DNA of 64,000 nucleotides from Escherichia phage ECCR664. The position numbers and the translations under genes are program-made. The stretch lies in the sequence record OL631257.1, one strand, 5' to 3'. A model generated the notes under the pieces. It did no database searches and had not been told where the DNA came from. It saw only the letters and a program-made list of their open reading frames with translations. Below, one piece after another: positions 8,293-22,480 of this stretch. The first letter of the stretch is position 1. Each line of letters starts with the position of its first letter.

Positions 8293-8605
8293 ATTTCCTC
8301 GCAAAATGCCCATTCAGCGTGATAAACTGTAGCACCTTTAGTATCATTCATTTGAACTACGTCTACCGGAGAAATTACTCGATAGAGACGTGGTTCACCT
8401 CCATAAGAGCGTGCTGCTCGTCCTGCATAAATCTTTGCTAAACCGATATCTTCAGTAAAGAATACACGATTCAAGTTTTTCTTACGTCCAATTTCAGACA
8501 GAACTCCTGTTTCTTCAGGAGGACAAAGCATATTTTCGATGTTAGCTGAACTACTTGAACCATGATAAAAATCTTAAATTCTGCTTTACAATCGATGGTT
8601 TTCAT
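8280..8605 (-). CDS. small Tpt1/KptA-like (ADP-ribosyltransferase-fold) protein, apparent frameshift
   Basis: ATG at 8605 (MKTIDCKAEFK) shifts into ...DFYHGSSSSANIEN ... RVFFTEDIGLAKIYAGRAARSYG ... PRLYRV, resembling the KptA C-terminal block (LYHGT ... HLSADEATARKVGARHG ... PVILTV). Not in T4 between dmd and 41 as I recall. Confidence 0.35.
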
Positions 8606-8631
8606 TTTGTTCTCCAGTAGTTGATAGGTCT

Positions 8632-8660
8632 ATAATAACACAACTACTGGAGAAGTAAAC
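8632..8660 (-). promoter_or_regulatory. T4 early-type promoter
   Basis: Minus strand GTTTAC - 17 nt - TATTAT, then the ATG at 8605. Confidence 0.45.
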
Positions 8661-9068
8661 TTAAAAATGTAATTTAGATATATCTGCGTTGATTTCGTTT
8701 TGGTTTGCGTCGTATGCAATTAAACGAACCGCTTTAGATGGGTCATTCAATGCATAGAAATGATGGAACATTGCTCGAACGATATCGCCATTTACAAGTT
8801 CTACCTGGATAGGAGAACCTTTTTCGAGTTGGAAATGTTCATAAGCTTTGATGGTTCGCAGATAATCAAGTTTTTGATTTCCGGCTCCAACAATTTGTAC
8901 GATACGTTTGCCCATGTTTTCCATACGAGATACAATAGTTTTAGGAGCAAGAATAACGTAGGTTGCCAGCGGAGAAACTACTTCAACAGTTGTGTTTTCG
9001 GTGATTGCAGTAAAATTGCTTGAGACATATTCATAATGTTTTCCTCTTGGTTGGTGTAAGTACATCAT
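8661..9068 (-). CDS. hypothetical protein (135 aa)
   Basis: ORF between dmd and gene 41; beta-rich; vague Sm/Hfq-like look (VELVNGDIVRAMF); start uncertain. Confidence 0.3.
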   Translation of the reverse strand: MMYLHQPRGKHYEYVSSNFTAITENTTVEVVSPLATYVILAPKTIVSRMENMGKRIVQIVGAGNQKLDYLRTIKAYEHFQLEKGSPIQVELVNGDIVRAMFHHFYALNDPSKAVRLIAYDANQNEINADISKLHF

Positions 9069-9087
9069 ATCATGCCTAGAGGAAGAT

Positions 9088-9116
9088 GTAAACCCCGAAA
9101 GGAGACCGAAGTCTCC
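9088..9116. terminator. stem-loop terminator candidate downstream of gene 41 (possibly bidirectional)
   Basis: Hairpin GGAGAC-CGAA-GTCTCC at 9101..9116; T-run on the plus side (TTTTATTAAAATTTT) and UUUCGGGGUUU on the minus side. Confidence 0.4.
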
Positions 9117-9121
9117 TTTTA

Positions 9122-10560
9122 TTAAAATTTTAACTCATTGGCTAAGCTATCTAGGTCAGCACGTGTTGCTTTGGCTTTACCTACGCGTTCCGTACGATTC
9201 ACCTCTGCCTGACGCATCTGAGCACCTGCGTTTTCATTTACTGTGTTAGGTGTGTTCATGCCTTCTTGCTCAATCTCAACCCATTTCTGATTGCCTTTAC
9301 GTACACCCATCAAGAACTTGTTCCACTTATTCTTATCACCATATCGTGATTTGATTTGTTTGATAAGTTGTTGTTCAGCTTGTGCAAGTTCTTCAGTTTC
9401 AATTACAGCCAACATGAAATCTGCCGTTGCTGGTAAACCTGCTGATTCTGCAATATCGCTCATGTTCATGTCTGAAGCATCCCATGCTGCACGTCCTACT
9501 TGAGCTGCAGTCCATAGAACTGTTTCAGATTCTACTGCTAATGCACGAAGTTCTTCTGCGATAGCTTTAACTAATGTGTAACTATTTTCAGTGTAAACTC
9601 TGATACGACAAGACCCACAAATACCTAAGTAATCGACTATAATTACAGACGGCACAAAGTTCTTCTTGAGTTTCAATTCATTAAGCAATGCACGGAATGT
9701 ATTAGCATTAGCTCCGCCAGTAGGATACTGTTTGACTACTAAACGTCCTAATGTGGATTTTGAACGCCATTTTTCCATCTTGGCTTTATATTCAGCATAA
9801 GATACGTTACCATCATCGATATCATCAAGTGATACGTCAAGCATGTTTGCATCTATACGCTTAGCACAAACTTCTTCAGCCATTTCCATGGAAATATAAA
9901 GAACATTATGTCCTGTTTGAAGATAATCTGCAGCAAGTGAACAAAGGCCTAAAGATTTACCAACGTTAACACCTGCCATTAAAACATTCAGTGTACCGGT
10001 TTCAGCACCACCTTTGGTGATTTTATTCAGAATGTTTAATTTGAACGGGACCTTACGTGCTTTATTTAGATAAGAAAGCCAGCGTGCTTCATAGTCTTCC
10101 ATCCAGTCATGACCAACATAACTATCAAACGAAATTGAAAGTGCTTGACGCATAATATCAGGAATAGCTCCTACGTCAGGCATTTTCTTGTTACGTTGTT
10201 CTGGAGGTAGTTCAGCATTAGACTGAATCTCAATGATTTTGGATGTAGCATTATACATCGCTTTTGCTGGACATATTTCTCAGTTTCTTTAACCAACCAT
10301 TCGTGGTCTTCAGGAGTGTCAGCCAATTTTTCAATTAGGTCTGAAGTTCCTTTATATTCGGCTTCAGTTAAAGAACTGTTATCTAAAGCCACCTTTAATG
10401 CATTGATAGATGGCATTGCATTATATTCGTTAACGTGGCTCTTTATAATTTTAAAGACATTTTTGCCGGTCCACGCTCAAAATACTCAGAATCCATATAA
10501 GGCCAGACCTTAGAAAAATAAGCCTGGTCGTATACGAGATGAGACAAAATAATTTCTACC
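9122..10560 (-). CDS. 41: replicative DNA helicase (DnaB-like), gene 41; two apparent frameshifts
   Basis: Fragments 9122..10258 (378 aa), 10171..10416 and 10417..10560 together match T4 gp41 almost residue-for-residue as recalled (e.g. PDVGAIPDIMRQALSISFDSYVGHDW, Walker A GVNVGKS). Confidence 0.9.
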
Positions 10561-10903
10561 ACGATAACTCCTTAAAAGAATTTAAATTTTTCTTGGTTCG
10601 TTCATTAAAAGCTTGTTGTACCTGCATTGTAACACATTTTTCAACATGTGGTGCAAGTTCTGCTTTTCTGTCCTGGTCAAGAACTGCAAAGTCCATTACG
10701 ATTTTACCATCAACCCAGTCTAGTTTTGTAATATAGACTATATGATGGGAACCGTCTTCAAGTGTAATCAGAATCTCTTGAATGACATTTTCCATTGCTG
10801 AACGGATAATTTTAAGAGATTCATTAAACACTCGTTCTTTGCGAATGTCTTCCCTTCCGAAGAAGGGGATTCATCAACGATTTCTAGATTTAAATCATCG
10901 AGA
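10556..10903 (-). CDS. 40: gene 40-like protein (head vertex assembly chaperone position)
   Basis: ORF 10556..10831 (91 aa) plus upstream extension to the uvsX stop; assigned by position between 41 and uvsX. Confidence 0.4.
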
Positions 10904-12074
10904 TTATTCATCGAAATCTTCCATTTCGTCAAGGTCGTTTTCAATATCTGCTGCAGACGGAGCATCAGAAGCTTTAACCGGAACTTTAGTTGTTGCTTTG
11001 CAATTAATAAGGTCGTTAACAGCGTCATCAACTTCTTTAATAGAAGAGATAGCACCTAGTTTATATTTAGTTTCAATTGCATCTCGGAAAGGTTTGTGTT
11101 TAAACAACGGCCCCCAGAATTCTACGCAATCAGTAGCTTTAGCACGCCATGATTTCTCTTCACGAATCATTTCACCTGTTTCTTCGTCAAGGAATTCACG
11201 AGCATACCAACCAGCTTTAGGTTTAACCACAAAACCAATTTCAGTTGCCATTTCTAACAAGCCACTGAATGGGTCAATACCGCCATCAAAATTAACCGTG
11301 ATTGGGAAAGTAGATTTCTCTTTAACTGTACGAGATTTTTCTGCTTTCAACGTGAAGTCATAACCGGTCAATTCTGTACCTTCTTTAACCTGACGTTTAG
11401 AGATAAAAATACTGTGTTAGCAGAATAAAGAATACCTGTACCACCGCCCATAATCTCTTTAGGATATAGTCCGCCGATTTCCATTGCTGTATGGTTGATT
11501 GCAACACATGGAATATCTTTAATAGTCAGATACGGGGTTACAATACGGAAAAGAGATTTAAGTGCCTTAGCACGAGACATATCACCTACGACTTTCTCGT
11601 TCAATGCATCTTCGGTTTCTTTCTTAGATGCAGTGTTACCGATTGAATCGATAAAGATAATAACTTTATCACCGCGTTCAATCGCGTCAAGCTGATTAGT
11701 CATATCAACTTTAAGTTGTTCGACGGACTGAATTGGTGTATGAACTACACGGTCTAAATCAACACCCATTGAACGGAAGTAAGATTCTGAAGCACCGAAT
11801 TCTGAGTCATAGAACAAACAGATTGCATCTTTATATTTCTTCATATACGCTGCAACCATAGTTAGTCCAAACAATGTTTTAAAATGTTTAGAAGGTGCAG
11901 CAAAATAGTCAAGCCTGATTGCAATCCTGCATTCAGAGCACCACCTAGTGCAATATTCAACATCGGAATACGAGTAGGGACTTCATCACGATTATTAAAC
12001 AGCTTAGACTTAGTCAAGTCTGCAGTCATTTTAGAAGTAGAAGCTTTAATCAGACGAGATTTTAAATCAGACAT
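10904..12074 (-). CDS. uvsX: UvsX recombinase (RecA-like); two apparent frameshifts
   Basis: Three fragments (10904..11371, 11368..11874, 11862..12074) together give about 390 aa; C-terminal block FTLKAEKSRTVKEKS.FPITVNFDGGIDPFSGLLEMATEIGFVVKPK matches T4 UvsX as recalled. Confidence 0.9.
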
Positions 12075-12173
12075 TGTATTTTTCCATAGGCATCATTATA
12101 TTTTACTCATGTTTAAAAGATAAGATGATTATATACTAAGAGTTATACAGCATTTAAAACTTTAAACAGGCTC

Positions 12174-12722
12174 TTAACGAGCCCATTTGATAATTTCTGT
12201 AATCAAATTATTACGTTCGCTTGCATTAAATCCTATAACTTTGTTAGCACCATCATGATTAAGTAATTGATACGTTTGGATTTTGTTATGAATTGCAAAC
12301 TCTTCAAAATGTGAAATGACTGTATTAAAACCGAATGAAGACAAAGTAATAAGATCGTCTTCAAAACTTTCAGTCATTTCGTTACGTGTTAAAATAATTG
12401 TGAACACATCATGGTTTTGGCAAAGACGAATATAATCCTGTTCATAAACGTCAAGAACCGAGTCCGCATCTTGTCGAATACGTCCATAAACCCAGTTACT
12501 AATATATCCACGGTCTAACAGATAAATCTTAGTAGGGTCTAAATAATTCAACATCGTTTCGAAACAGCCAACTTCATTTCGAGACTTAACATCGAAACGT
12601 CCATCAACTGTTCGTTTAGGGAAATCAATCTTTACATATCTTTCACTAATTTCCATTATGTCATTAATGAAAGTTGTTTTACCAGCATTATCCGGTCCGT
12701 CTACTAAAATAATTTTAGCCAT
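12174..12722 (-). CDS. P-loop kinase, thymidylate/dNMP-kinase-like
   Basis: 182 aa; Walker A GPDNAGKTT; LLDRGYISNWVYG resembles the TMPK DRY..S..AYQ lid motif. Sits where T4 has beta-gt. Confidence 0.55.
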   Translation of the reverse strand: MAKIILVDGPDNAGKTTFINDIMEISERYVKIDFPKRTVDGRFDVKSRNEVGCFETMLNYLDPTKIYLLDRGYISNWVYGRIRQDADSVLDVYEQDYIRLCQNHDVFTIILTRNEMTESFEDDLITLSSFGFNTVISHFEEFAIHNKIQTYQLLNHDGANKVIGFNASERNNLITEIIKWAR

Positions 12723-12723
12723 T

Positions 12724-13623
12724 TTATTCCTCGATTACGACATCTTCGTATTTAGGTATATTATACGGTGAAGAAATTAAAGCATTAAAGTAGATGAACT
12801 CACCAAGACCTGGATGGAATACTTCTTCAGGATTTTCGAAATATTGAATCTTCGGACGTCCTTTAAGAATTTGATAGTACTCAGTTTTAGTTGGATTAAA
12901 AATTCGAATCAGCGCTTCTTCGGGATACTTATTTCTGTCGAAACTATTATTTGGATCAGTTATATAAAGCGGTTGACCTAATTGAATTGCGCATTCAACC
13001 ACTTGTTCAAAACGATAGCATGGGTCACTAATTCGAAATGGATGAAAAATACCATCTAGATGAATAGGAGCCAAATCACCTACAAGACGCTGCATGACGG
13101 AAGGACGTATAACTTTCTGCGTTACGATAATCTTATTACCATCTGCACCTGCGTTAACCAGCACTTCTTTTTGACGTTCATTCAACACAGTAGTTTGAAG
13201 TGAACGATTAACCGACAACATATCGGTTTTTAAGAATTCGTCAATATAAAAACGTGGTTTATTAGGGTCTGCAGTGATATTGAAATTGAATTCCACATCA
13301 AAAGCGCCGTCATATCCGGTGATATCTGTGATTAGAAAATCACAATCATAATAAGCAATTAATGAATCAACCACAAATTCATTTTCAGACCAGAAATATT
13401 TACGAGTGTTATACGCGTTATCTTTATACCATAATGGAACAAACTTAAATTCTGGGAAAAGACGTTCACATTCTTTAATATCGGATGCATTACGTGGATA
13501 TGTAATCACATCACCTGGATTAGCACGGTGCAAATGAAGTTGGAAGTTGCCATCCTTAAGGATAGCATACTGTCCAGTTTCATAAGACCGCATACTCAAG
13601 ATTGGTACGCGGAAAATAGCCAT
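12724..13623 (-). CDS. hypothetical protein; positional candidate for the hmC-DNA glycosyltransferase
   Basis: 299 aa; no similarity to T4 beta-gt as recalled; immediately downstream of gene 42 and coupled to the P-loop kinase (1-nt gap). Confidence 0.3.
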   Translation of the reverse strand: MAIFRVPILSMRSYETGQYAILKDGNFQLHLHRANPGDVITYPRNASDIKECERLFPEFKFVPLWYKDNAYNTRKYFWSENEFVVDSLIAYYDCDFLITDITGYDGAFDVEFNFNITADPNKPRFYIDEFLKTDMLSVNRSLQTTVLNERQKEVLVNAGADGNKIIVTQKVIRPSVMQRLVGDLAPIHLDGIFHPFRISDPCYRFEQVVECAIQLGQPLYITDPNNSFDRNKYPEEALIRIFNPTKTEYYQILKGRPKIQYFENPEEVFHPGLGEFIYFNALISSPYNIPKYEDVVIEE

Positions 13624-14339
13624 TAGTCAAGGAATCCTTTAACATAATCAAAATCACGTTCAAACACATGGGCACTTACCATGGTATGAGTATAATCACC
13701 AACTTCTACACCACATTCGTTAGCGATATAATGAAGTAATTTTCCTTGGAGATAAAAATCCAACTGCATAACAACAGCACAGTTCTGAGAACGCATATGA
13801 CAGTGGGTATAAAGCTTACCATCACGAATATAATAAGTCACTGAGTCAGTACATGGATATTCAAGTGTTTCGTCCGAATCAAGCAAAGCCTGATCAGAAC
13901 TTTCTAGAATTTGGAACACAACTCTTCGAGAGTTAGGTTTCTCTTTAAGTTCTTTTAGAAGAGCTGGTAATTGGGCCACAATGCGAGGACCGTAGAAAGT
14001 GTTGAAGTTCGCCGGCAAAACATCTGATTTTGGTTTAGAAATAAATTTAGCGACATTAGGATATGCCTTAAACGCTTCTTCTGCGTTGGTACCACCAGAA
14101 ATCATAAACTTCCAGAAGTCTTCGGCATATTCATAAGAGATGCGGTTAATACGTGGGTCGGTCATTTTGAATGATGATGGAGTGTCAACAACTACTGTCA
14201 TGGACCCGATTTCATTACAACGTCCAATACGAGAATCAGTTACGAATTCGGGGTTTTCTAAAATTTCACGATTGACTGCTTTAAATGCGGCTTGAAAATC
14301 TGCGGCTTTGATATATTTCATTGTGTTATGTTTTCCCAT
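13623..14339 (-). CDS. 42: dCMP hydroxymethylase (thymidylate-synthase fold), gene 42 homolog
   Basis: 238 aa; TS-family core YPCTDSVTYYIRDGKLYTHCHMRSQNCAVVMQLDFYLQ with catalytic Cys in PC and Asp at the position that is Asn in thymidylate synthase and Asp in T4 gp42 (cytosine specificity). Diverged from T4 gp42. Confidence 0.75.
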   Translation of the reverse strand: MGKHNTMKYIKAADFQAAFKAVNREILENPEFVTDSRIGRCNEIGSMTVVVDTPSSFKMTDPRINRISYEYAEDFWKFMISGGTNAEEAFKAYPNVAKFISKPKSDVLPANFNTFYGPRIVAQLPALLKELKEKPNSRRVVFQILESSDQALLDSDETLEYPCTDSVTYYIRDGKLYTHCHMRSQNCAVVMQLDFYLQGKLLHYIANECGVEVGDYTHTMVSAHVFERDFDYVKGFLD

Positions 14340-14380
14340 GTTTACCTCAATACAATTTATTATATACTCAATTCGTAAAG

Positions 14381-14633
14381 CTTATTTGAATTTCTTGGCA
14401 ATGTTGATATAACGTAAAGCTTCAGAATCTATACTTCCAAGAACACTATGAAGGAATGCATCAGTGTAGTATTCCAATTGAACAGGTTCTTTAATCACTT
14501 TAGCCGCTTTGGTTTCAAACAGGCCCATAAGGGCCTTTTAAGAATTTGTTCGTTAGTGTTCAGTTTTATAGTCAAAATCTCTTCATTAAGTTTATAATTA
14601 AAAGTTTTTCTAGAAATCATTCCGGGTACCTCA
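14381..14633 (-). CDS. small hypothetical protein, apparent frameshift
   Basis: Not in ORF track; MISRKTFNYKLNEEILTIKLNTNEQILK then frame switch at a GGCCCTTATGGGCC palindrome. Confidence 0.25.
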
Positions 14634-14651
14634 AAGCGTCATCAGAGTTAG

Positions 14652-15774
14652 TTATATCAATAATAGATATAGAGTTTTCTGATAACCCATTTTTAGATAA
14701 CTGACGTTTATAATATCTTTCACAATATGTACACGTCGTCCCGCAGATTTCATTAGCACAATCGAAATCTGGATGTCTGAACCACCTTTTTCTAAAAAGC
14801 CATCTAACAAAGAGGTTTCAATATTTACTGTATGTGAAAACTCAGTCTCATTTTCAAGAGTGAAAATAGTCTCTAAAGGCTTCCACAGTTCTAACAAATT
14901 ACCTTCAAACTTTTCAGAAGCGTATGCTTCAAGAACTTTCAAAATGTAGTCGGTGCTACCTGTACGTCCTGAAACTTTGAATTGAGTGATACCAATATCA
15001 TTATAAAGTTTCAAATCTTGAGGACGAACAAAACGAGTTCTCAACCAGTTAAATGGGTCTGTATCACGAGCTTTAATACAGTGCTGCATAGGATATCCGT
15101 TTAAGGATTTAGCATCATCAGCTGTAACATCAGTACTATGGAAAATATAGCAAGAGTCACGATAGCTACAATGTGTTGTATACCCTTTACCAGCATTAGA
15201 ACAGAACTCATTTACAAGAACTTCAAATATTATATTGTTCTTATTGCAAAACTCTGCTGCACGCTTCAGGAAAGAAACTGAACGGTTCTTATGAATTCCG
15301 CAGCAGACTTTTTTGATGTTATATTGGTCGTGCAAGTATTTGATTTGAGTTACAGCATCAACATGTAGAATTGTTGAAACTTCAATCTCAATGTCTTTAT
15401 TGACTTCACGAACAATTTCCATAACAACAGGGTTAGCGATAGTAATACGCCATACGCCTATTGACCAAAGATACTGAACATAATCCTGAATAGCTTTCTT
15501 CTTCCACTCAACTAGTTCTCTTTTGAACCAGGATTTATCGTGTTGAGTGTATAGTTAAAGCAAATACCTAATTCGTTACAACGTTTAACGTAGTCTTCTA
15601 ACATCTTTTGTCAACGTCAGGAAGCCTAAAATCAGGTCTGGCTGCTACAAAAGCCATTTCTCTTGTAGAACCATATACTTCGTTTATCAAGCTATTAGGA
15701 TAGGTTTTATTGAGCTCTACGATTTTATCAAGAAGAGCTAAATCAAAATTCGTTCCGATTTTAAAAGTATTCAT
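14652..15774 (-). CDS. peptidase-U32-family protein (RlhA/TrhP/UbiU-like TIM-barrel fold), apparent frameshift
   Basis: ORF 14652..15422 plus N-terminal extension from ATG at 15774. Blocks align to U32 proteins by eye: ELGICFNYTLNTI (YVALNTL), ANPVVMEIVREVNKDIEIEVSTI (DLGLLRLIRE..ELHAST), EVLVNEFCSNAGKGYTTHCSYRDSC (Cys-rich FVHGALC..SGRC region). Confidence 0.5.
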
Positions 15775-15828
15775 TTTTGCATCTCGCGTTAATTGATGCG
15801 ATGGTTTTTGCAGGTCTTACTTAAATTA

Positions 15829-16230
15829 TTATAGATTCGGTTTATACGATTTAAATGTTTCGAATTCGCCTTTATTCATAAGAGCTTTGAATTCGTCAGG
15901 ACGCATAGCTTTGTCGTCGATAATCCAATCATATACTGGTTTATGTGTTAGCAAATTATGGTACTTCAAACCAATGTTTTCCAAGTTCTGAATCAGACTT
16001 GGGAGAATGTCAATTGCTATACGACCAGGACCTACCGACTTCATACCACGAGCCGTGTAAAGCGTTATGGTATGCCCTGCATCATACAGGGCATTAATGG
16101 CGGACACCATTTCGACGTCTGGTTTGAAGTTCACGTAATCACGATTGTTATTCCACTCTGTTATACAATCATCGACATCAAAACAAAGATTAAGCATGTT
16201 TTCTACACGGTGCATTAGATTCGTTCCCAT
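15829..16230 (-). CDS. HAD-superfamily phosphatase (KdsC/GmhB-like small sugar-phosphate phosphatase)
   Basis: 133 aa; HAD motif I CFDVDDCITEW (DxDx[T/V]); TARG motif; true start may be the internal Met at about 16197. Confidence 0.6.
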   Translation of the reverse strand: MGTNLMHRVENMLNLCFDVDDCITEWNNNRDYVNFKPDVEMVSAINALYDAGHTITLYTARGMKSVGPGRIAIDILPSLIQNLENIGLKYHNLLTHKPVYDWIIDDKAMRPDEFKALMNKGEFETFKSYKPNL

Positions 16231-16285
16231 TGATGAGTGATATCGCCACCGATTGGACGATAGGAAACACCAGTTTCTTTATCAG

Positions 16286-17104
16286 TTAGTACCCATTTAC
16301 CAGGATTTTTGTAATCAGAGTAGCCGTTACAGGTTCTGCTACGTCATAACTAATAGAGCCGTCCTGAAGTACACGGCCCATGTTACGTAATTGCTTAGTC
16401 AGAAGTTCCATGCCTTTATAATATGCGGCTACCGCTTTAAGTGGATTATTCTTGAAATAACCACCTAATGCAATCCAGATAATTGCTACTGCCAAATGAT
16501 GATACTCGTTAAACGAACTCATCTTTCCATATTTGTAAACTAGTGGATTGATGTTAATAGTCACATTACAAGTTGTTTCATCAATAATAAACTGGCCCCA
16601 GGTCGGATTAGCGTTGAATTCATCATAACCTGAAACAGCATAAAGCACTTTAGCTTCATCATACAATTTTGGCCCGTAAATCTTGGTTTCACCAAAATAT
16701 CCACGAGGGTCGATAAACTTGACTTCGCCGTTATCAGTAATCATGGTATTACTGAAGTTCGGGTCACCGTGAATAACAGAGTACTGTCCCTGAGAACGGT
16801 TATGATAACGAATAAGGTGTTCTAAAGCTTGTTTCAACATTGGCTTCAGACGTCCAATCTTAGTGTAGTTCACACGTGTGATTTTACCAAATGAATCAAT
16901 CAATGGTTGAATGCTTTCACAACGATCAATAACTTTCGTATAGAATTCTTTAGTGAAATCACGACGAACAGTTTCAGGACTTACAAAATAAGCGTCTGTG
17001 CTGAATTTCAGTGCATCTAAAATTGCATCAACAATTTGTGGACGAGCAAGACTTGATTTGGATTTAATATATTCAAATGCTGGCTTACCTTTAATACGTT
17101 CCAT
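16286..17104 (-). CDS. APH/choline-kinase-fold sugar kinase (anomeric sugar-1-kinase-like)
   Basis: 272 aa; catalytic-loop HGDPNFSNTMI and metal-binding FIDPRGYFGE, as in APH-fold kinases (AmgK/NahK/KdkA type). Confidence 0.65.
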   Translation of the reverse strand: MERIKGKPAFEYIKSKSSLARPQIVDAILDALKFSTDAYFVSPETVRRDFTKEFYTKVIDRCESIQPLIDSFGKITRVNYTKIGRLKPMLKQALEHLIRYHNRSQGQYSVIHGDPNFSNTMITDNGEVKFIDPRGYFGETKIYGPKLYDEAKVLYAVSGYDEFNANPTWGQFIIDETTCNVTININPLVYKYGKMSSFNEYHHLAVAIIWIALGGYFKNNPLKAVAAYYKGMELLTKQLRNMGRVLQDGSISYDVAEPVTATLITKILVNGY

Positions 17105-17130
17105 AATAAAGTGGCCGCCAGGATGATAAC

Positions 17131-17900
17131 TTACAATCCGTGGAACTGAATCTGATTTAACTTTCTTATACCAATTGACTTCATCTTTTGAAGTGCAACG
17201 CCCTGTTCTGTTAAAGCAATCTTTGTTACCGTTTCTTCGCCAATTTCAACTGCATTAAAACTACGATTAAGTTCACGAACTTCATGAGCTTTTTCAAGTT
17301 TAGGCATATCACCAAGGTCGATGATATTCATAAGCTCTGATTTATTGAATGCGCCGCTGTAAAGGAATTCTACAAAATCACGTCCTTTGCAGTATTCGTG
17401 AATTTCCTCATCAGTAGAACCCATGTAGAATTCCCAGTCTTTGAACTGATAAATTCCTACAACATTACCGCCTGTTGAACCTACGTTAGTGATATTTTCA
17501 CCATCGAAATTATATCGACATTCATCACCTTTAACATAGATTGCGTTAACATTCCAAGACCATGAACCAAAATCAGGAATAATATCACACCAGTTAACAA
17601 CTACGTTATGGCCGTCTAAATCTTTATGTAATTTAGCAAGAGCATAAGCAGAACCATACGCTTCATCAACTGTACGAATAGTCACATTGAACCCTTCTTG
17701 CTCACAATAAGCTCGAACGGTTTCAGCAAATTTTGAATGAACTACTACAATAATTTCATCTGCGCCAAGGTCAGAATAAATTGTGTACAAATTGCTCAGA
17801 ATAGTGTCTTGTTTATAGTTCACAAGAACTTTTGGAATATGGTGAGTAATTGGATATAAACGAGTTGCCAATCCAGCACCAAGAATAACAGCTTTTTCAT
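17131..17900 (-). CDS. sugar-1-phosphate nucleotidyltransferase (NDP-sugar pyrophosphorylase), apparent frameshift near the start
   Basis: ORF 17131..17871 plus ATG at 17900; restoring one base in an A-run gives MKKAVILGAGLATRLYPIT..PKVLV, the G-x-G-T-R-L signature. Confidence 0.7.
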
Positions 17901-17941
17901 GTTGAAGTCCTCATTGGTAAGTAGGTGTATTGTACACTATT

Positions 17942-18085
17942 CTAGTTAAAGCATTCATACTTTGCCTGTAGACCAATCATAATCCATCCAATTACAAGTG
18001 TTGGAATCATTACTGGAGCCGTTAAGCTCCAGTAGATAGTCATGACAAGCATCAATAGTAAAAGTCCTATTGTTATTGCTTTCAT
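17942..18085 (-). CDS. small membrane protein (47 aa)
   Basis: Not in ORF track; MKAITIGLLLLMLVMTIYWSL ... VIGWIMIGL; start overlaps the upstream stop (ATGA). Confidence 0.3.
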   Translation of the reverse strand: MKAITIGLLLLMLVMTIYWSLTAPVMIPTLVIGWIMIGLQAKYECFN

Positions 18086-18716
18086 TGTTCGCCTCGTAAC
18101 ATGGCACCTAGTGCACCGCCAGGGTGGAACTTAAGGAAGTCATTAGAGGTAAATCCACGTTCAGACGAAAGGTTGATAGCGAACGTATCGATAAGCGCTA
18201 ACAACAATGTAGTGGACATTGTCGGAGCTAAAGAGTTCTCGTCGACTTCCACCGCGATACCGGTACAGAACGTATAATCAAAAGAGCTTCGTATTCTTGC
18301 GGAATGTCAGGGTTACAATGTAACAGAATCTGTTTAACCTGAGGACGAATCATACGAAGATGTTTAGCAACACCTATCATTTCTTCAGTCTTACCAGAAC
18401 GACTAATATGAATCAACACATCATTAGGCGCAATGAATCCTGCATCACCGTGAGAATAATGCCCGGTGTTCAAGTACATACTCGGGATACCGAGTGAAGC
18501 AAATGTCTCAGAAGCTTTAGTTGCGATATTAGCGTTCTTACCAACACCTGTAATAATTACACGACTTTCATAATTACTCAGTCCAGGGCGTCGAAGAGTT
18601 TCTAGAATAGCATTATAACGAGCAGGGTTTTGACTAATTACTTTAGCCATGGTGGCAAGAGATGAAGCTTGTTTTACGATTGCGTCAATAGCGATAGTGA
18701 TTGGTGTAGTTTTCAT
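18082..18716 (-). CDS. D-arabinose-5-phosphate isomerase-like SIS-domain protein (KdsD/KpsF-type, no CBS domains), apparent frameshift
   Basis: ORF 18228..18716 carries the SIS core ITGVGKNANIATKASETFASLGIP ... HGDAGFIAPNDVLIHISRSGKTEEM; the shifted C-terminal extension ends DFLKFHPGGALGAML (KdsD-like FHPGGxLG). Confidence 0.7.
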
Positions 18717-18756
18717 ATTTCTCTCATTTAATTAGTTGGCCGTCCTTGGCATTATA

Positions 18757-21466
18757 TCAAAAATCGAACATATCGAACAGAGATGCTTTCTTCTCGTAAT
18801 CGAGTTTCGCTGCTGATGTGAATCCTTCAAGTGGTTTAATAAATGTCTTCTCAAGGAGAACCGTGTAGTCCATCCAATGAAGTACGTCGTCTTTAATTAA
18901 ATCTGTGATTTCAGTACCAGAAGGCCATGCGATACATTTATCACCGAATGGGTTTCCTTCACGTAAAGGCAGAACATATACTTTTTCACCTTCTACAACT
19001 TGTGGTGCATCAATATTACCTTTAATAGCCCGGTTATACGTCAGAATTCCACGAATATGGAACGGGCATTTGGGACCAGGGAATCCACCAACGTCATATT
19101 TAGCAATGTTATTCGCAGAAGATACCGACGCAATGCTAATATAATTCAATTGACGGAATTCTTTTTCAAACTCTTTAAAATATTCTTGTAATGATTCTTC
19201 ACCTTCTTGAAGCATACGACGAATACATTCTTTAAGAGCTTTCTGTACCGCTTTAGGAGTTGAAGATTTCTGTGTTTCGAGACCCATGATTTTGAGTTTA
19301 GGCTCAGCGTAACGAGTACCTTCCATATCCCACACGTTTAATGCATAACGTTTCTTACCAGTCCAGAATCCGCCAATACCTTTAGAACCGAGCGGAGGAC
19401 CAGCGATAGCTTCTCGGTCCATGAACATCAAATGTTGCTTATTATTCATGTATTCGCACATTTCACGGAAACCTCTATCAATAGCTGGTTCCATACGTTC
19501 ACGTGCAAACTTATCTAAGAAGTCTACCCAATGGTTGGTATCACGGAATTTAGATTCACCAACCTTATCAATAATTTTATCAGCAGATACGTAAATAGAG
19601 TCTGTATCACCATAAAGAACGAAAGCTTCACCTTCTGTACCACAAACTTCATTCAGATATTCATTAACTTTACGTTCAATCCACTGTAAAGCCATTTGAC
19701 CAAATGTTGTGATTGCAGTAGCATTACGCAAATCGTAATAACGGAACCAAACGTTGCCAAGTGCACCATAAAGTGAGTTGATAAGCAATTTACGGTTAAT
19801 TTGTGCAGTCATACCTGCAACTTCAGTACGTTGAGCTCTAAACAACATTTCATTAAGAGATTTAGCAGACAACTTTTTAATCTTTTCTTTAATCTCATCA
19901 GTGAAGTCGAAACGATAATCAACATCTAATGGTTCGTCAACAGAAAGATTAGGATTATGCAATGCCTCTTTAATTATTTCACCATTACGTTGAGCTGCAA
20001 GCATGTAACCTTTATGTTCTTTACGTTGATTAAAGACCTTAGTGATTTCAGTTGGAACTACACCGTCACGGTCTTTATAATACATCATGCCGTTAGGAGA
20101 GCAACTGTACACATCAGAAGGACGTTCAGCAACAGCGTTAATATAATCATGCAGTGGAGCTACTTTAAACGTTCCTGCTATTGTTTCTGGGCTAATATTC
20201 ACTTGGCGAATAATACTTGGATACAGAGATGTAAGGTCGAAACTCATTACATATTTGTATCGATTTGGAATAGGTTCCTTAACAAAAGCGCCAGGATAAG
20301 GTTGAACCGGGTGAGAACGACCTTGTGGAATCACCTTGTTTTGTTCTTTAAGGCTATTAAAAATAATAGCATCCCATGTTTTAATTGGGCTAAACACAGA
20401 TTGAATCTGTATCTTAGCATAATAACCCATGTCCAAACTCAAGTTGATGAACTGACGCTTAGCATCAATTTGCAATACACGATACACGTCGATAATGTTA
20501 TAAGAAATATATCGTTGGTGATTGCTTTCACGAAGCTTAGAAATAGGACCGTCATATTTCAGTTTACCGACATTCAATTCAAATTCTGAAATGTAATCCA
20601 GAGAATACGACGGTTGATTGGTAAAGAGAATTTTTGTAAAGGTCAATGTAATCAAGAACAGAGATACCGAACAATGTAATGATTTCACGAGAACCATACA
20701 TGTTTTCGATAACTTTAACACGAGTTTTACGATGTGGTGATAAACGTTTCGCAGTAGATTCGCCAAAAATATTTTTGATTCGGTTATACACATATGGAAT
20801 ATCAAATGACTCAACGTTCCATCCAGTCAAAATGACAGGAGTTTTCTGTTGCCAGAAGTTGAGATATTCCATCAACAATTCTTTTTCGTTATCGAACGGC
20901 ATATAAATGATTTTATCAATAATTTCGGATGGAACTTCATCACCACCTTGTTCTTGAAGCTTAGCTGCAATTTCGATAGACCATTCTTCTACATTACCAT
21001 ATGGAGAATTCAATAGATCAAATACGTAGAACCTGTCGTCAATTGAGTCATAATGGGTGATAGCATCAATCGGATGTTTTGCTTGTGACGGCTCAGGAAA
21101 CCCATCCGGAGATGTTACTTCGATGTCGAAGTTAGCCACACGAATTTTTGTATGGACGTATTTGATTTCATAGTTATAAGTGTCAGACAAATACGCTAAT
21201 TTGAAATCGTCCATGCCAAGTGCTTCAAGTCCGATATCTTCCATGCGTTTAATCCATTGGGAGGCATCACGCATATTAGCGAACAACTTACGAGTACATG
21301 GCTTACCGTAGATATCGAAATATTTCGTAGCCTGACTTTCCGGACAATGAGCAAACAGTGATGGTTTATATTCTACTTCACGAGTACGTTCACGGCCATT
21401 AGAATCGATGTAACGTTCAAAAATTGAATCACCAATCTGTTCAACCGTTAAGTAAAATTCTTTCAT
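18757..21466 (-). CDS. 43: DNA polymerase, gene 43 (family B); one apparent frameshift
   Basis: N-terminal 295-aa ORF (MKEFYLTVEQIGD...) and C-terminal ORF (YGDTDS, ...KKRYALNVWDMEG...) match T4 gp43 as recalled. Junction is a one-base loss in the T5 run at 20630..20634; restoring it gives ...LDYIDLYKKILFTNQPSYSL... Confidence 0.95.
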
Positions 21467-21525
21467 TTAATTTCCTTTAGACGAGTTATTGTCTTTTGTT
21501 TGTTGATGAACTTATTATACTCCAA

Positions 21526-21543
21526 ATGGGACCGAAGTCCCAT
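21526..21543 (-). promoter_or_regulatory. intergenic stem-loop between regA and gene 43
   Basis: Hairpin ATGGGAC-CGAA-GTCCCAT 5 nt after the regA stop, followed on the minus strand by UUUGGAG-TATAAT; function not resolved (terminator/attenuator or RNA-binding site). Confidence 0.4.
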
Positions 21544-21547
21544 TGCT

Positions 21548-21925
21548 TTAATTACCAATTGTATATTTTGCTTTCAAAGTCCAGTCATCTTTCTGTTTAA
21601 AAGAGATAACACGGAAGTTATTAGTCAAGCCAAACAGATCTTCACGAGCAGAGTCTTCAATAACAATTAATCCCCAGTCTTCAAGCAACTGAGCGATCGA
21701 ATCACGTCGCTGATAGTCTTCACCATCGATATCAACTTGTCGTCCGTCCATACGCAGCATTTCTTTAAAGTGGACGATGTAGTATTTACCTTGCTTTTGG
21801 AGGATATGACAGGACTGATAAAGAACTTTATCCTTGTTATTAGCGATGCCCATACGGGTCAAAGTCTCTTTGACTTTCAGAAAATCTTCAGGGTTCTTCA
21901 ATTTAATTTCAATCATTTTTACCAT
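21548..21925 (-). CDS. regA: translational repressor RegA
   Basis: PEDFLKVKETLTRMGIANNKDKVLYQSCHILQK ... HFKEMLRMDGRQV ... LTNNFRVISFKQK matches T4 RegA as recalled; true start probably the second ATG (MIEIKL). Confidence 0.9.
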   Translation of the reverse strand: MVKMIEIKLKNPEDFLKVKETLTRMGIANNKDKVLYQSCHILQKQGKYYIVHFKEMLRMDGRQVDIDGEDYQRRDSIAQLLEDWGLIVIEDSAREDLFGLTNNFRVISFKQKDDWTLKAKYTIGN

Positions 21926-21939
21926 TCCAATGCTAATTT

Positions 21940-22480
21940 TTAAATTGTTTTTGTTCTTTTACGTTTTTAGTAACTTCTTTGAGAAACTCATCAGTGACCA
22001 TGGCCTTCAGTTCTTTAAGGACTATTGGCAACTTGTTATTTTTTCAAGGAGCCGCTTATACTCGGTAGCATCATTCATGTTGATTGTGTAATGTTTCATC
22101 AACAGTTTGATAACTAGTAACTCTGAAGTGTCTTCGACTAGTTTAGCCCATTTAGAGAATCGACGACCACGCGGAATTGCCGCCATCATATAGTTGAAGT
22201 GCGCTTCATCACTTAATTCAGAACCGACTAAGTTCATCATGTAAACGGCTGGCATACATTCTGGGAACTGGGATAGTGAGTTCTCAACCATAAATTTTGA
22301 GTAGTCGACCTGAGCAATTGACATAGATTTCTTTTCATTAATAGCATTAATGATTTTAAAGAATTCATTCTCAGGTTTTTCTTTAAACATATCAGCACAT
22401 TTTTGAATCGCATCAGCGTCATTAGACTTCCATGCAATTTGGTGCTCGTTAAGCTGGACGTCATCATCGAATAAGTTCAT
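21940..22480 (-). CDS. 62: clamp-loader small subunit, gene 62; apparent frameshift near the 3' end
   Basis: ORF 22022..22480 (152 aa) plus shifted C-terminal tail; adjacent to gene 44 with a 1-nt gap. Confidence 0.75.

Follow-up and report, generated by a model that had tools for sequence, protein, structure and literature searches.

The window analysed here is the whole 64,000-nucleotide stretch of Escherichia phage ECCR664 DNA (sequence record OL631257.1). Its minus strand carries, at 14617..15774, a U32-family gene, which reading-frame repair, Pfam, hhalign and identity to RB69 gp50 identify as the orthologue of that gene (RB69p050, NP_861740). On balance, gp50 probably provides an O2-independent, prephenate-dependent route to 5-hydroxycytosine nucleotides. 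In the proposed mechanism, gp50 would act as a divergent, single-polypeptide U32 iron-sulfur (Fe-S) enzyme hydroxylating C5 of a cytosine deoxynucleotide without O2, with the oxygen atom coming from prephenate, as in TrhP, RlhA and UbiU/UbiV. The substrate would probably be deoxycytidine monophosphate (dCMP) or, less likely, cytosine already in DNA, and the 5-hydroxycytosine product would then be phosphorylated, incorporated into DNA and arabinosylated. Since gp48 yields this product as well, using O2 and flavin, gp50 would be redundant in air and needed without it. We infer the substrate, the use of prephenate, Fe-S binding and the anaerobic role from the U32 hydroxylase type of the protein, partner genes that would make the oxygen donor, a context of 5-hydroxypyrimidine genes and an oxygen-linked distribution.

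The DNA of RB69 contains arabinosylated 5-hydroxycytosine instead of hydroxymethylcytosine (Lee et al., NAR 2026, PMC13326640). RB69 gp48, a homologue of "dCMP hydroxymethylase", converts dCMP to 5-hydroxy-dCMP, carries flavin and takes its oxygen from 18O2 (PMC13326640). The original prediction linked the U32 gene to a DNA-modification neighbourhood and placed it near a ThyA-like gene, both of which hold. However, that gene encodes a 5-hydroxy-dCMP synthase rather than a dCMP hydroxymethylase, a small open reading frame (ORF) intervenes, and the phage is RB69-like with arabinosyl-5-hydroxycytosine, not T4 with hydroxymethylcytosine. A second base-modification step had also been suggested; because gp48 already hydroxylates C5 with O2 and flavin (PMC13326640), it is more likely that the U32 protein provides this first step in parallel and independently of O2. 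Paired O2-dependent and O2-independent routes operate in the formation of 5-hydroxyuridine (ho5U) in tRNA (TrhO/TrhP) and of ubiquinone (UbiI/H/F and UbiU/V), and gp48 and gp50 may form a similar pair. In contrast to those systems, the two phage genes share one viral operon, and a DNA precursor is presumably formed.

U32 family membership and active-site motif

The RB69 gp50-type protein belongs to the U32 family. The repaired protein matches Pfam PF01136 (Peptidase_U32) with 42.2 bits (E 7e-11; gathering cut-off 22.4), and the longest unbroken ORF of the window at this locus (14652..15422) alone reaches 25 bits; for comparison, UbiV, a validated hydroxylase subunit, scores 38.3 bits. An hhalign comparison with E. 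coli TrhP, RlhA, UbiU and UbiV gave a probability of 96.8% (E 2.5e-10, 211 columns). These profile results confirm the family assignment of the original prediction, and its description of characterised U32 proteins as O2-independent C5 hydroxylases was also supported. BLASTP against the four E. coli U32 proteins found nothing significant, so that profile methods alone make the connection, and a sequence search of the PDB with the phage protein gave no significant match. An AlphaFold model was made for an 87%-identical orthologue (predicted local distance difference test score, pLDDT, 92.5). The top match of this model in a Foldseek search of the PDB was 5D88, the U32 protein Mk0906 of Methanopyrus kandleri with a U32-type barrel (E 2e-7, template-modelling score 0.67 on the target); the two proteins share 12% identity, and the match covers the barrel only (247 aa). 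At lower rank, the TIM-barrel fold of the model also resembles sugar-acting enzymes.

The core U32 motif of gp50 comprises E188, C206 and C212 in the repaired numbering (approximately 15133..15213, minus strand). In the hhalign alignment they correspond to TrhP E162/C170/C177, and across 77 homologues they are invariant or at least 90% conserved. The TrhP residues and their RlhA counterparts E161/C169/C176 are essential in vivo for the formation of ho5U and 5-hydroxycytidine (ho5C), respectively (PMC6599085). Thus, gp50 has in common with TrhP (YegQ) and RlhA (YdcP) both the U32 domain and the essential E/C/C motif, and their KIEGR-like motif appears as KVSGR in the phage protein. The chemistry of RlhA, which makes 5-hydroxycytidine, fits the phage proposal. 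The phage protein differs from these two enzymes in having CX5C instead of CX6C and a 10-residue insert with an extra invariant cysteine. C161, C195 and C236 are family-invariant as well.

A C-terminal CX4CX3CX2C tail (C343, C348, C352 and C355; approximately 14715..14755, minus strand), invariant in the subfamily, is found in 60 of 63 close homologues (at least 44% identity) versus two of 25 distant ones, and could possibly form a second Fe-S site. It replaces the RNA-associated C-terminal domains of TrhP and RlhA, and the presumed substrate is a deoxynucleotide. PF01136 is the only Pfam match of gp50, which contains neither Peptidase_U32_C (present in TrhP) nor DUF3656 (present in RlhA). This short, U32-only architecture is that of UbiU/UbiV, whose substrate is a small molecule, and it is consistent with the proposed role of gp50. 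UbiU and UbiV each bind a [4Fe-4S] cluster, use prephenate as the oxygen donor and back up flavin/O2 monooxygenases. They form a heterodimer assisted by UbiT, an SCP2 accessory protein, whereas the phage has one U32 gene encoding two cysteine clusters and no UbiT-like partner: no UbiT/SCP2-like gene and no second U32 gene was found among the window neighbours. The NCBIfam UbiU model gives gp50 18.4 bits (cut-off 440). An exhaustive profile search for phage-type U32 proteins retrieved 487 cluster representatives at E ≤ 1e-30 and 1705 at E ≤ 1e-3. Judged by their sequences, these proteins are a modest, distinct branch of the U32 family.

Reading-frame repair and gene integrity

The best match of the window region is phage ATK47 (98.6% identity), an RB69-like T-even phage of the genus Mosigvirus. 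Its counterpart of RB69 gp50 is gp142, with 389 codons and the annotation "peptidase, similar to RB69ORF050c". The alignment of the U32 region with ATK47 shows four single-base gaps and 12 substitutions in the window, each gap falling in an A5 or A6 run that has lost one A. Three gaps lie inside the coding sequence and produce −1 frameshifts at ~15609/10, ~15524/5 and ~14791/2; the fourth (~15778) is upstream of the likely start. The repaired protein is identical to that of ATK47, and therefore all 12 substitutions are synonymous, with 0 non-synonymous; it is also identical to RB69 gp50 at 388 of 389 positions. The original prediction had ended the gene at 14652, which is the stop of a frameshifted frame (the true stop is at 14617), and had assumed one frameshift at 15420-15440, where merely the longest ORF starts. 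The product has 386 aa from the methionine at 15774, or 389 aa counting the upstream ATG of the ATK47 and RB69 annotations. Family alignments start at MNxFK, and the ATG at 15774 is probably the real start.

A decaying pseudogene with real frameshifts in ECCR664 would account for a reading frame that is broken three times. However, all breaks are −1 changes in A/T runs, about 35 similar homopolymer changes occur over 14 kb, including the essential genes gp41, uvsX and gp43, and 12 of the 12 differences from ATK47 are silent, which makes decay scarcely credible. Because the same −1 change affects these essential genes, we attribute the U32 frameshifts to sequencing or assembly errors in a gene that has not decayed.

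The systematic one-base loss in A/T homopolymers relative to close relatives extends over window positions 8300-22300 and apparently over the whole window. It splits nearly every long gene (gp41, uvsX, gp43, the AfhE-like gene and the arabinose-5-phosphate (A5P) isomerase gene), and only two ORFs in the 64-kb window exceed 400 aa.

Association with chorismate mutase

Chorismate mutase makes prephenate. Prephenate is needed for TrhP and RlhA to function (PMC6599085) and is the oxygen donor for UbiU/UbiV (PMC10990095). In 15 of the 18 T4-like loci examined, U32 and the synthase gene have a chorismate mutase gene between them. The encoded enzyme is of type II (Pfam CM_2, 38.5 and 44.6 bits; cut-off 27). 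In Karam-, Winkler- and Kanagawavirus this gene overlaps the end of the U32 gene, and in Tegunavirus, PM2 and Proteus phages one or two small ORFs separate the two. With tblastn, the T4-like chorismate mutase protein was found in 48 phage records. The U32 loci of other phages include an adjacent chorismate mutase in 26 of 52 cases.

ORFs were also called and clustered in 34 non-T4 viral loci covering ±10 kb around U32. Eleven of these 34 unrelated loci have a chorismate mutase beside U32, and at least six of the enzymes are fused to a domain resembling 3-deoxy-D-arabino-heptulosonate 7-phosphate (DAHP) synthase. These domains score 125-163 bits (also given as 150-220 bits) with DAHP synthase models versus 50-67 bits with models of 3-deoxy-D-manno-octulosonate 8-phosphate (KDO8P) synthase, below the curated cut-offs. 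The encoded partners suggest viral boosting of the shikimate pathway. Identification of these domains as KDO8P synthases, which use arabinose-5-phosphate, was considered and rejected, since DAHP synthase models score three times higher. DAHP-synthase-like proteins, in most cases with a chorismate mutase joined to the C-terminal end, are encoded at L039 7317-8357, L046 11097-12194 and L028 9384-10130.

Distribution of U32 and synthase genes

The U32 gene was found in 221 phage records, all with at least 80% identity and all from RB69-like or other non-T4 Straboviridae, in agreement with the earlier remark that no such gene was known in T4. Homologues of the 5-hydroxy-dCMP synthase are present in 373 phage records. 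Across T4-like genera, U32 proteins are 82-89% identical, compared to 71-83% for the synthases, and we read this, like the silent differences from ATK47, as a sign of selection on the gene. Between the HAD phosphatase and synthase genes, U32 looks like a cassette that may or may not be present. In Acinetobacter phage Maestro the phosphatase gene directly abuts the synthase gene, and in the E. coli Dhakavirus Bp7 a kinase gene alone lies between them; neither interval contains U32 or chorismate mutase. RB69-like phages come from guts and sewage, and their hosts are facultative anaerobes. Records with the synthase include 57 from Acinetobacter phages and 20 from Rhizobium phages, whose hosts are aerobes (strict ones in the case of Acinetobacter), and both names are absent from the U32 list. 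This oxygen ecology, in which U32 occurs where O2 can be lacking and is missing where O2 is always available, is in line with the proposed role of gp50.

Outside the T4-like phages, U32 homologues of 45-58% identity are abundant in metagenomes, on phage-like contigs of up to 466 kb, and many of these unrelated large phages come from anaerobic gut samples. In the non-T4 loci, direct BLASTP identified 12 full-length AfhE-like genes, 11 A5P isomerase genes and about 10 glycosyltransferase genes of the RB69 gp46:47 type beside U32, which also adjoins genes for KdsC-type HAD phosphatases and for thymidylate-kinase-like and MazG/dUTPase-like proteins. The search for ThyA-family genes in these loci used jackhmmer, as a hidden Markov model of the 5-hydroxy-dCMP synthases was too narrow. 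Only one of 47 non-T4 U32 loci had a ThyA-family gene within 10 kb, and this was a canonical ThyA (L029). Locus L031 encodes MazG, a kinase, a glycosyltransferase and U32, while L039 encodes a glycosyltransferase, an isomerase, an AfhE-like protein, a kinase, the DAHP synthase-chorismate mutase fusion, a HAD protein and U32. In such clusters the companions of U32 are those of the ThyA-like synthase in RB69, and neither locus has a ThyA-family gene. Thus, in non-T4 phages U32 apparently substitutes for the ThyA-like synthase. Several contigs with U32 only were binned with gut anaerobes (Romboutsia, Oscillospiraceae, Gastranaerophilaceae and Erysipelotrichales).

Evidence against the proposed role and alternative functions

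Several observations weigh against an O2-independent, prephenate-dependent hydroxylase. Only two cysteines of the canonical four-Cys motif align in gp50, the third and fourth positions falling in a gapped region, and the invariant C195, C236 and C161 are alternative cluster ligands guessed from conservation. Aerobically, gp48 and a kinase are sufficient to produce 5-hydroxycytosine in E. coli DNA (PMC13326640), and no U32 enzyme has been reconstituted or shown to hydroxylate in vitro (PMC10990095). The six-frame ORFs of the 64-kb window contain no chorismate mutase match, and therefore this phage would rely on host PheA and TyrA; in Mosigvirus an RB69ORF049c-like small ORF (ORF049c) occupies the chorismate mutase slot, and the case for prephenate is carried over from sister genera. 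Bp7 and other Dhakaviruses have the synthase but do without U32, even though E. coli is a facultative anaerobe, and the host/oxygen pattern of U32 presence is confounded by phylogeny. In the metagenomic phages, a ThyA-type enzyme or another hydroxylase could lie beyond the ±10 kb in view, and host assignment from the binning of metagenome-assembled genomes is weak.

The published annotations point to the sugar branch of the pathway, where gp50 would be a reductase or tailoring enzyme acting on the arabinose donor or on attached sugars. In the 2026 NAR study, gp50 appears in a table row alone as "sugar or heterocycle reductase" (PMC13326640), and GenBank describes the U32 protein of phage Bas47 as a 'putative enzyme involved in UDP-arabinose biosynthesis'. 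The constant company of arabinose-activation and glycosyltransferase genes, in both T4-like and unrelated phages, is also in favour of such a function, as is the lower-rank structural similarity to sugar-acting enzymes. On the other hand, Acinetobacter phages and Dhakaviruses keep the rest of the gene set without U32, phages DLP3 and Maestro have been reported with arabinosylated 5-hydroxycytosine, and AfhE and AfhF alone reconstitute the formation of UDP-arabinose from A5P (PMC13326640). A sugar-directed enzyme would also leave unexplained the chorismate mutase and DAHP synthase partners, the retention of the hydroxylase motif and the U32 loci with a dCMP deaminase, methyltransferase or kinase but no arabinose genes, and we regard this function as quite unlikely. 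The name 'peptidase', used by RefSeq and by PHROGs for phrog_5757, would make gp50 a genuine collagenase/PrtC-like protease. However, the family label is the source of these names, the E. coli members that have been characterised act as Fe-S-containing hydroxylation factors, and the surrounding genes belong throughout to nucleotide and sugar metabolism; peptidase activity is therefore extremely improbable.

If gp50 is a hydroxylase, its target could differ from the proposed dCMP. RNA is the target of all pyrimidine-directed U32 proteins characterised to date, and T4-like phages carry their own tRNAs; gp50 might accordingly hydroxylate host or phage RNA (tRNA U34, rRNA C2501) to tune translation, and manipulation of host RNA was one option of the original prediction. 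This option is not favoured, and we consider an RNA target very unlikely: gp50 is without the Peptidase_U32_C and DUF3656 domains of TrhP and RlhA, E. coli already has both of these enzymes, and the gene is missing from T4-type phages with the same translational needs. Moreover, U32 travels with genes for a nucleotide kinase, a dCTPase-like protein, a deaminase, a glycosyltransferase and arabinose activation, and its synteny with DNA-precursor enzymes is conserved in unrelated phages. Hydroxylation of another nucleic-acid substrate, such as cytosine in DNA (patching unmodified sites), dUMP or dCTP, is unlikely too. RlhA and TrhP do act on polymers, the U32 genes of L004, L005 and L052 directly follow a dCMP deaminase gene, pointing to a uracil nucleotide there, and the S-adenosylmethionine (SAM) methyltransferases that, with nucleotide kinases, neighbour other U32 homologues suggest hydroxy-then-methoxy chemistry. 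In the T4-like and arabinose-type clusters, however, the dCTPase-like/MazG, monophosphate kinase and glycosyltransferase partners follow the logic of pre-replicative dCMP modification, although they do not discriminate firmly between these substrates.

Gene neighbourhood in the window

The genes around U32 are all on the minus strand. As in RB69, where gp50 (phrog_5757) is flanked in the same way by the HAD phosphatase and ORF049c/gp48, the U32 gene is followed by ORF049c (14382..14620), which encodes 79 aa, contains an artefactual frameshift near 14535 and belongs to phrog_8601, a family of unknown function. ORF049c separates U32 from the ThyA-like gene, its ATG overlapping the U32 stop (ATGA). 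Its family has the conserved motif YYxDAFxHSxxGxIxxExxRxINxxKR. ORF049c-like genes were found in Mosigvirus, Tegunavirus, PM2 and Serratia phage 92A1; Tegunaviruses and PM2 have both ORF049c and chorismate mutase, and Marfa has neither. We rejected ORF049c as a divergent chorismate mutase: it has no CM_2 or other Pfam match, it aligns poorly, and the two genes coexist in Yersinia phages and PM2. ORF049c could be a helper of the U32 enzyme.

The ThyA-family 5-hydroxy-dCMP synthase (13623..14339; Pfam Thymidylat_synt; PMC13326640) is identical to RB69 gp48 at 234 of 238 positions. It is followed by a glycosyltransferase of the RB69 gp46:47 family, the putative DNA arabinosyltransferase 1 (12724..13623), and by a thymidylate-kinase-like nucleotide kinase of the RB69 gp45 family (12174..12722). 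On the other side of U32 are a HAD-type phosphatase (15829..16230; RB69 gp51, AfhF-like), a bifunctional nucleotidyltransferase/kinase (16286..17871; RB69 gp52:53, AfhE-like), which is split by artefactual frameshifts, and an arabinose-5-phosphate isomerase of the RB69 gp55 family (18228..18716), whose 5' end lies upstream and whose 3' end is lost to a frameshift at ~18279. The AfhE-like gene is about 95% identical to that of ATK47 outside window positions 17129-17221. This segment, the linker between the nucleotidyltransferase and kinase halves, is strongly divergent from ATK47 with many small indels.

Other U32 loci

In Winklerviruses, a Seg-like homing endonuclease gene is inserted between the HAD phosphatase and U32 genes (L003 5352-5990; L058 3015-3653). 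The viral contig L052 (7613-11101) encodes a kinase/glycosyltransferase-like protein, a SAM methyltransferase, dCMP deaminase and U32, an order that hints at a uracil-based 5-hydroxy or 5-methoxy modification. L004, the 466-kb contig of a very large phage, and L005 have U32 after dCMP deaminase and no arabinose genes. Nearby are genes for a DNA polymerase III alpha subunit that is split or fused to uracil-DNA glycosylase, a MazG-like protein, thymidylate kinase, a radical SAM/SPASM protein and Thg1.

A conserved four-gene module is present in gut bacterial and archaeal genomes (L063-L065 and L068-L072; for example, L071 3224-7137 in a Phocaeicola faecalis isolate). It encodes a GP88-family protein (PF17338), a guanylate-kinase::SAM-methyltransferase fusion, a 267-aa protein with a weak match to the archaeal 8-oxoguanine glycosylase 1XQO (E 0.0035) and a U32 protein that is 44-50% identical to the phage protein. 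This module may serve to modify DNA with hydroxy- or methoxy-pyrimidines. More distant U32 paralogues (L073-L088; 23-32% identity), which have no C-terminal cysteine tail, are located inside nonribosomal peptide synthetase/polyketide synthase clusters of Clostridia and Bacteroidales together with B12-radical-SAM enzymes, often as tandem pairs. They may be anaerobic hydroxylases of natural products.

Novelty and significance

Sequencing of the RB69 genome had already revealed the gene itself, and more than 200 phage genomes and PHROGs label its product "peptidase". The discussion of PMC13326640 treats RNA hydroxylation pathways as unrelated, and the paper makes no mention of U32, prephenate, TrhP, RlhA or chorismate. 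No literature linking U32, chorismate mutase or prephenate with these phages was found in our search, which did not cover He et al. 2026 and Mahler et al. 2025. Within the searched literature, the assignment of gp50 to the hydroxylase branch, its partnership with chorismate mutase and DAHP synthase, and its apparent substitution for the ThyA-like synthase in other phages appear to be new.

The arabinosyl-5-hydroxycytosine modification protects phage DNA against restriction and CRISPR. The modified DNA was worked out in 2025-2026, and its single known hydroxylase is O2-dependent; a route based on prephenate would account for formation of the modification in the absence of oxygen. If this proposal is true, the U32 family would extend from RNA and quinones to DNA precursors and viruses, and viruses would rewire shikimate metabolism for their supply of an oxygen donor. 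With one subunit and a soluble nucleotide as substrate, such an enzyme would also offer the first tractable in vitro assay of U32/prephenate chemistry. More tentatively, with a chance that we put slightly below even, the phage proteins may represent the first U32 hydroxylases acting on DNA precursors, being the sole source of 5-hydroxypyrimidines in phages of strict anaerobes and working alongside an O2/flavin enzyme in RB69-like phages. The glycosylated, perhaps 5-methoxy, DNA of the strict-anaerobe phages would then depend on U32, together with their own DAHP synthase and chorismate mutase, and the DNA hypermodification of RB69-like phages would work over the whole oxygen range.

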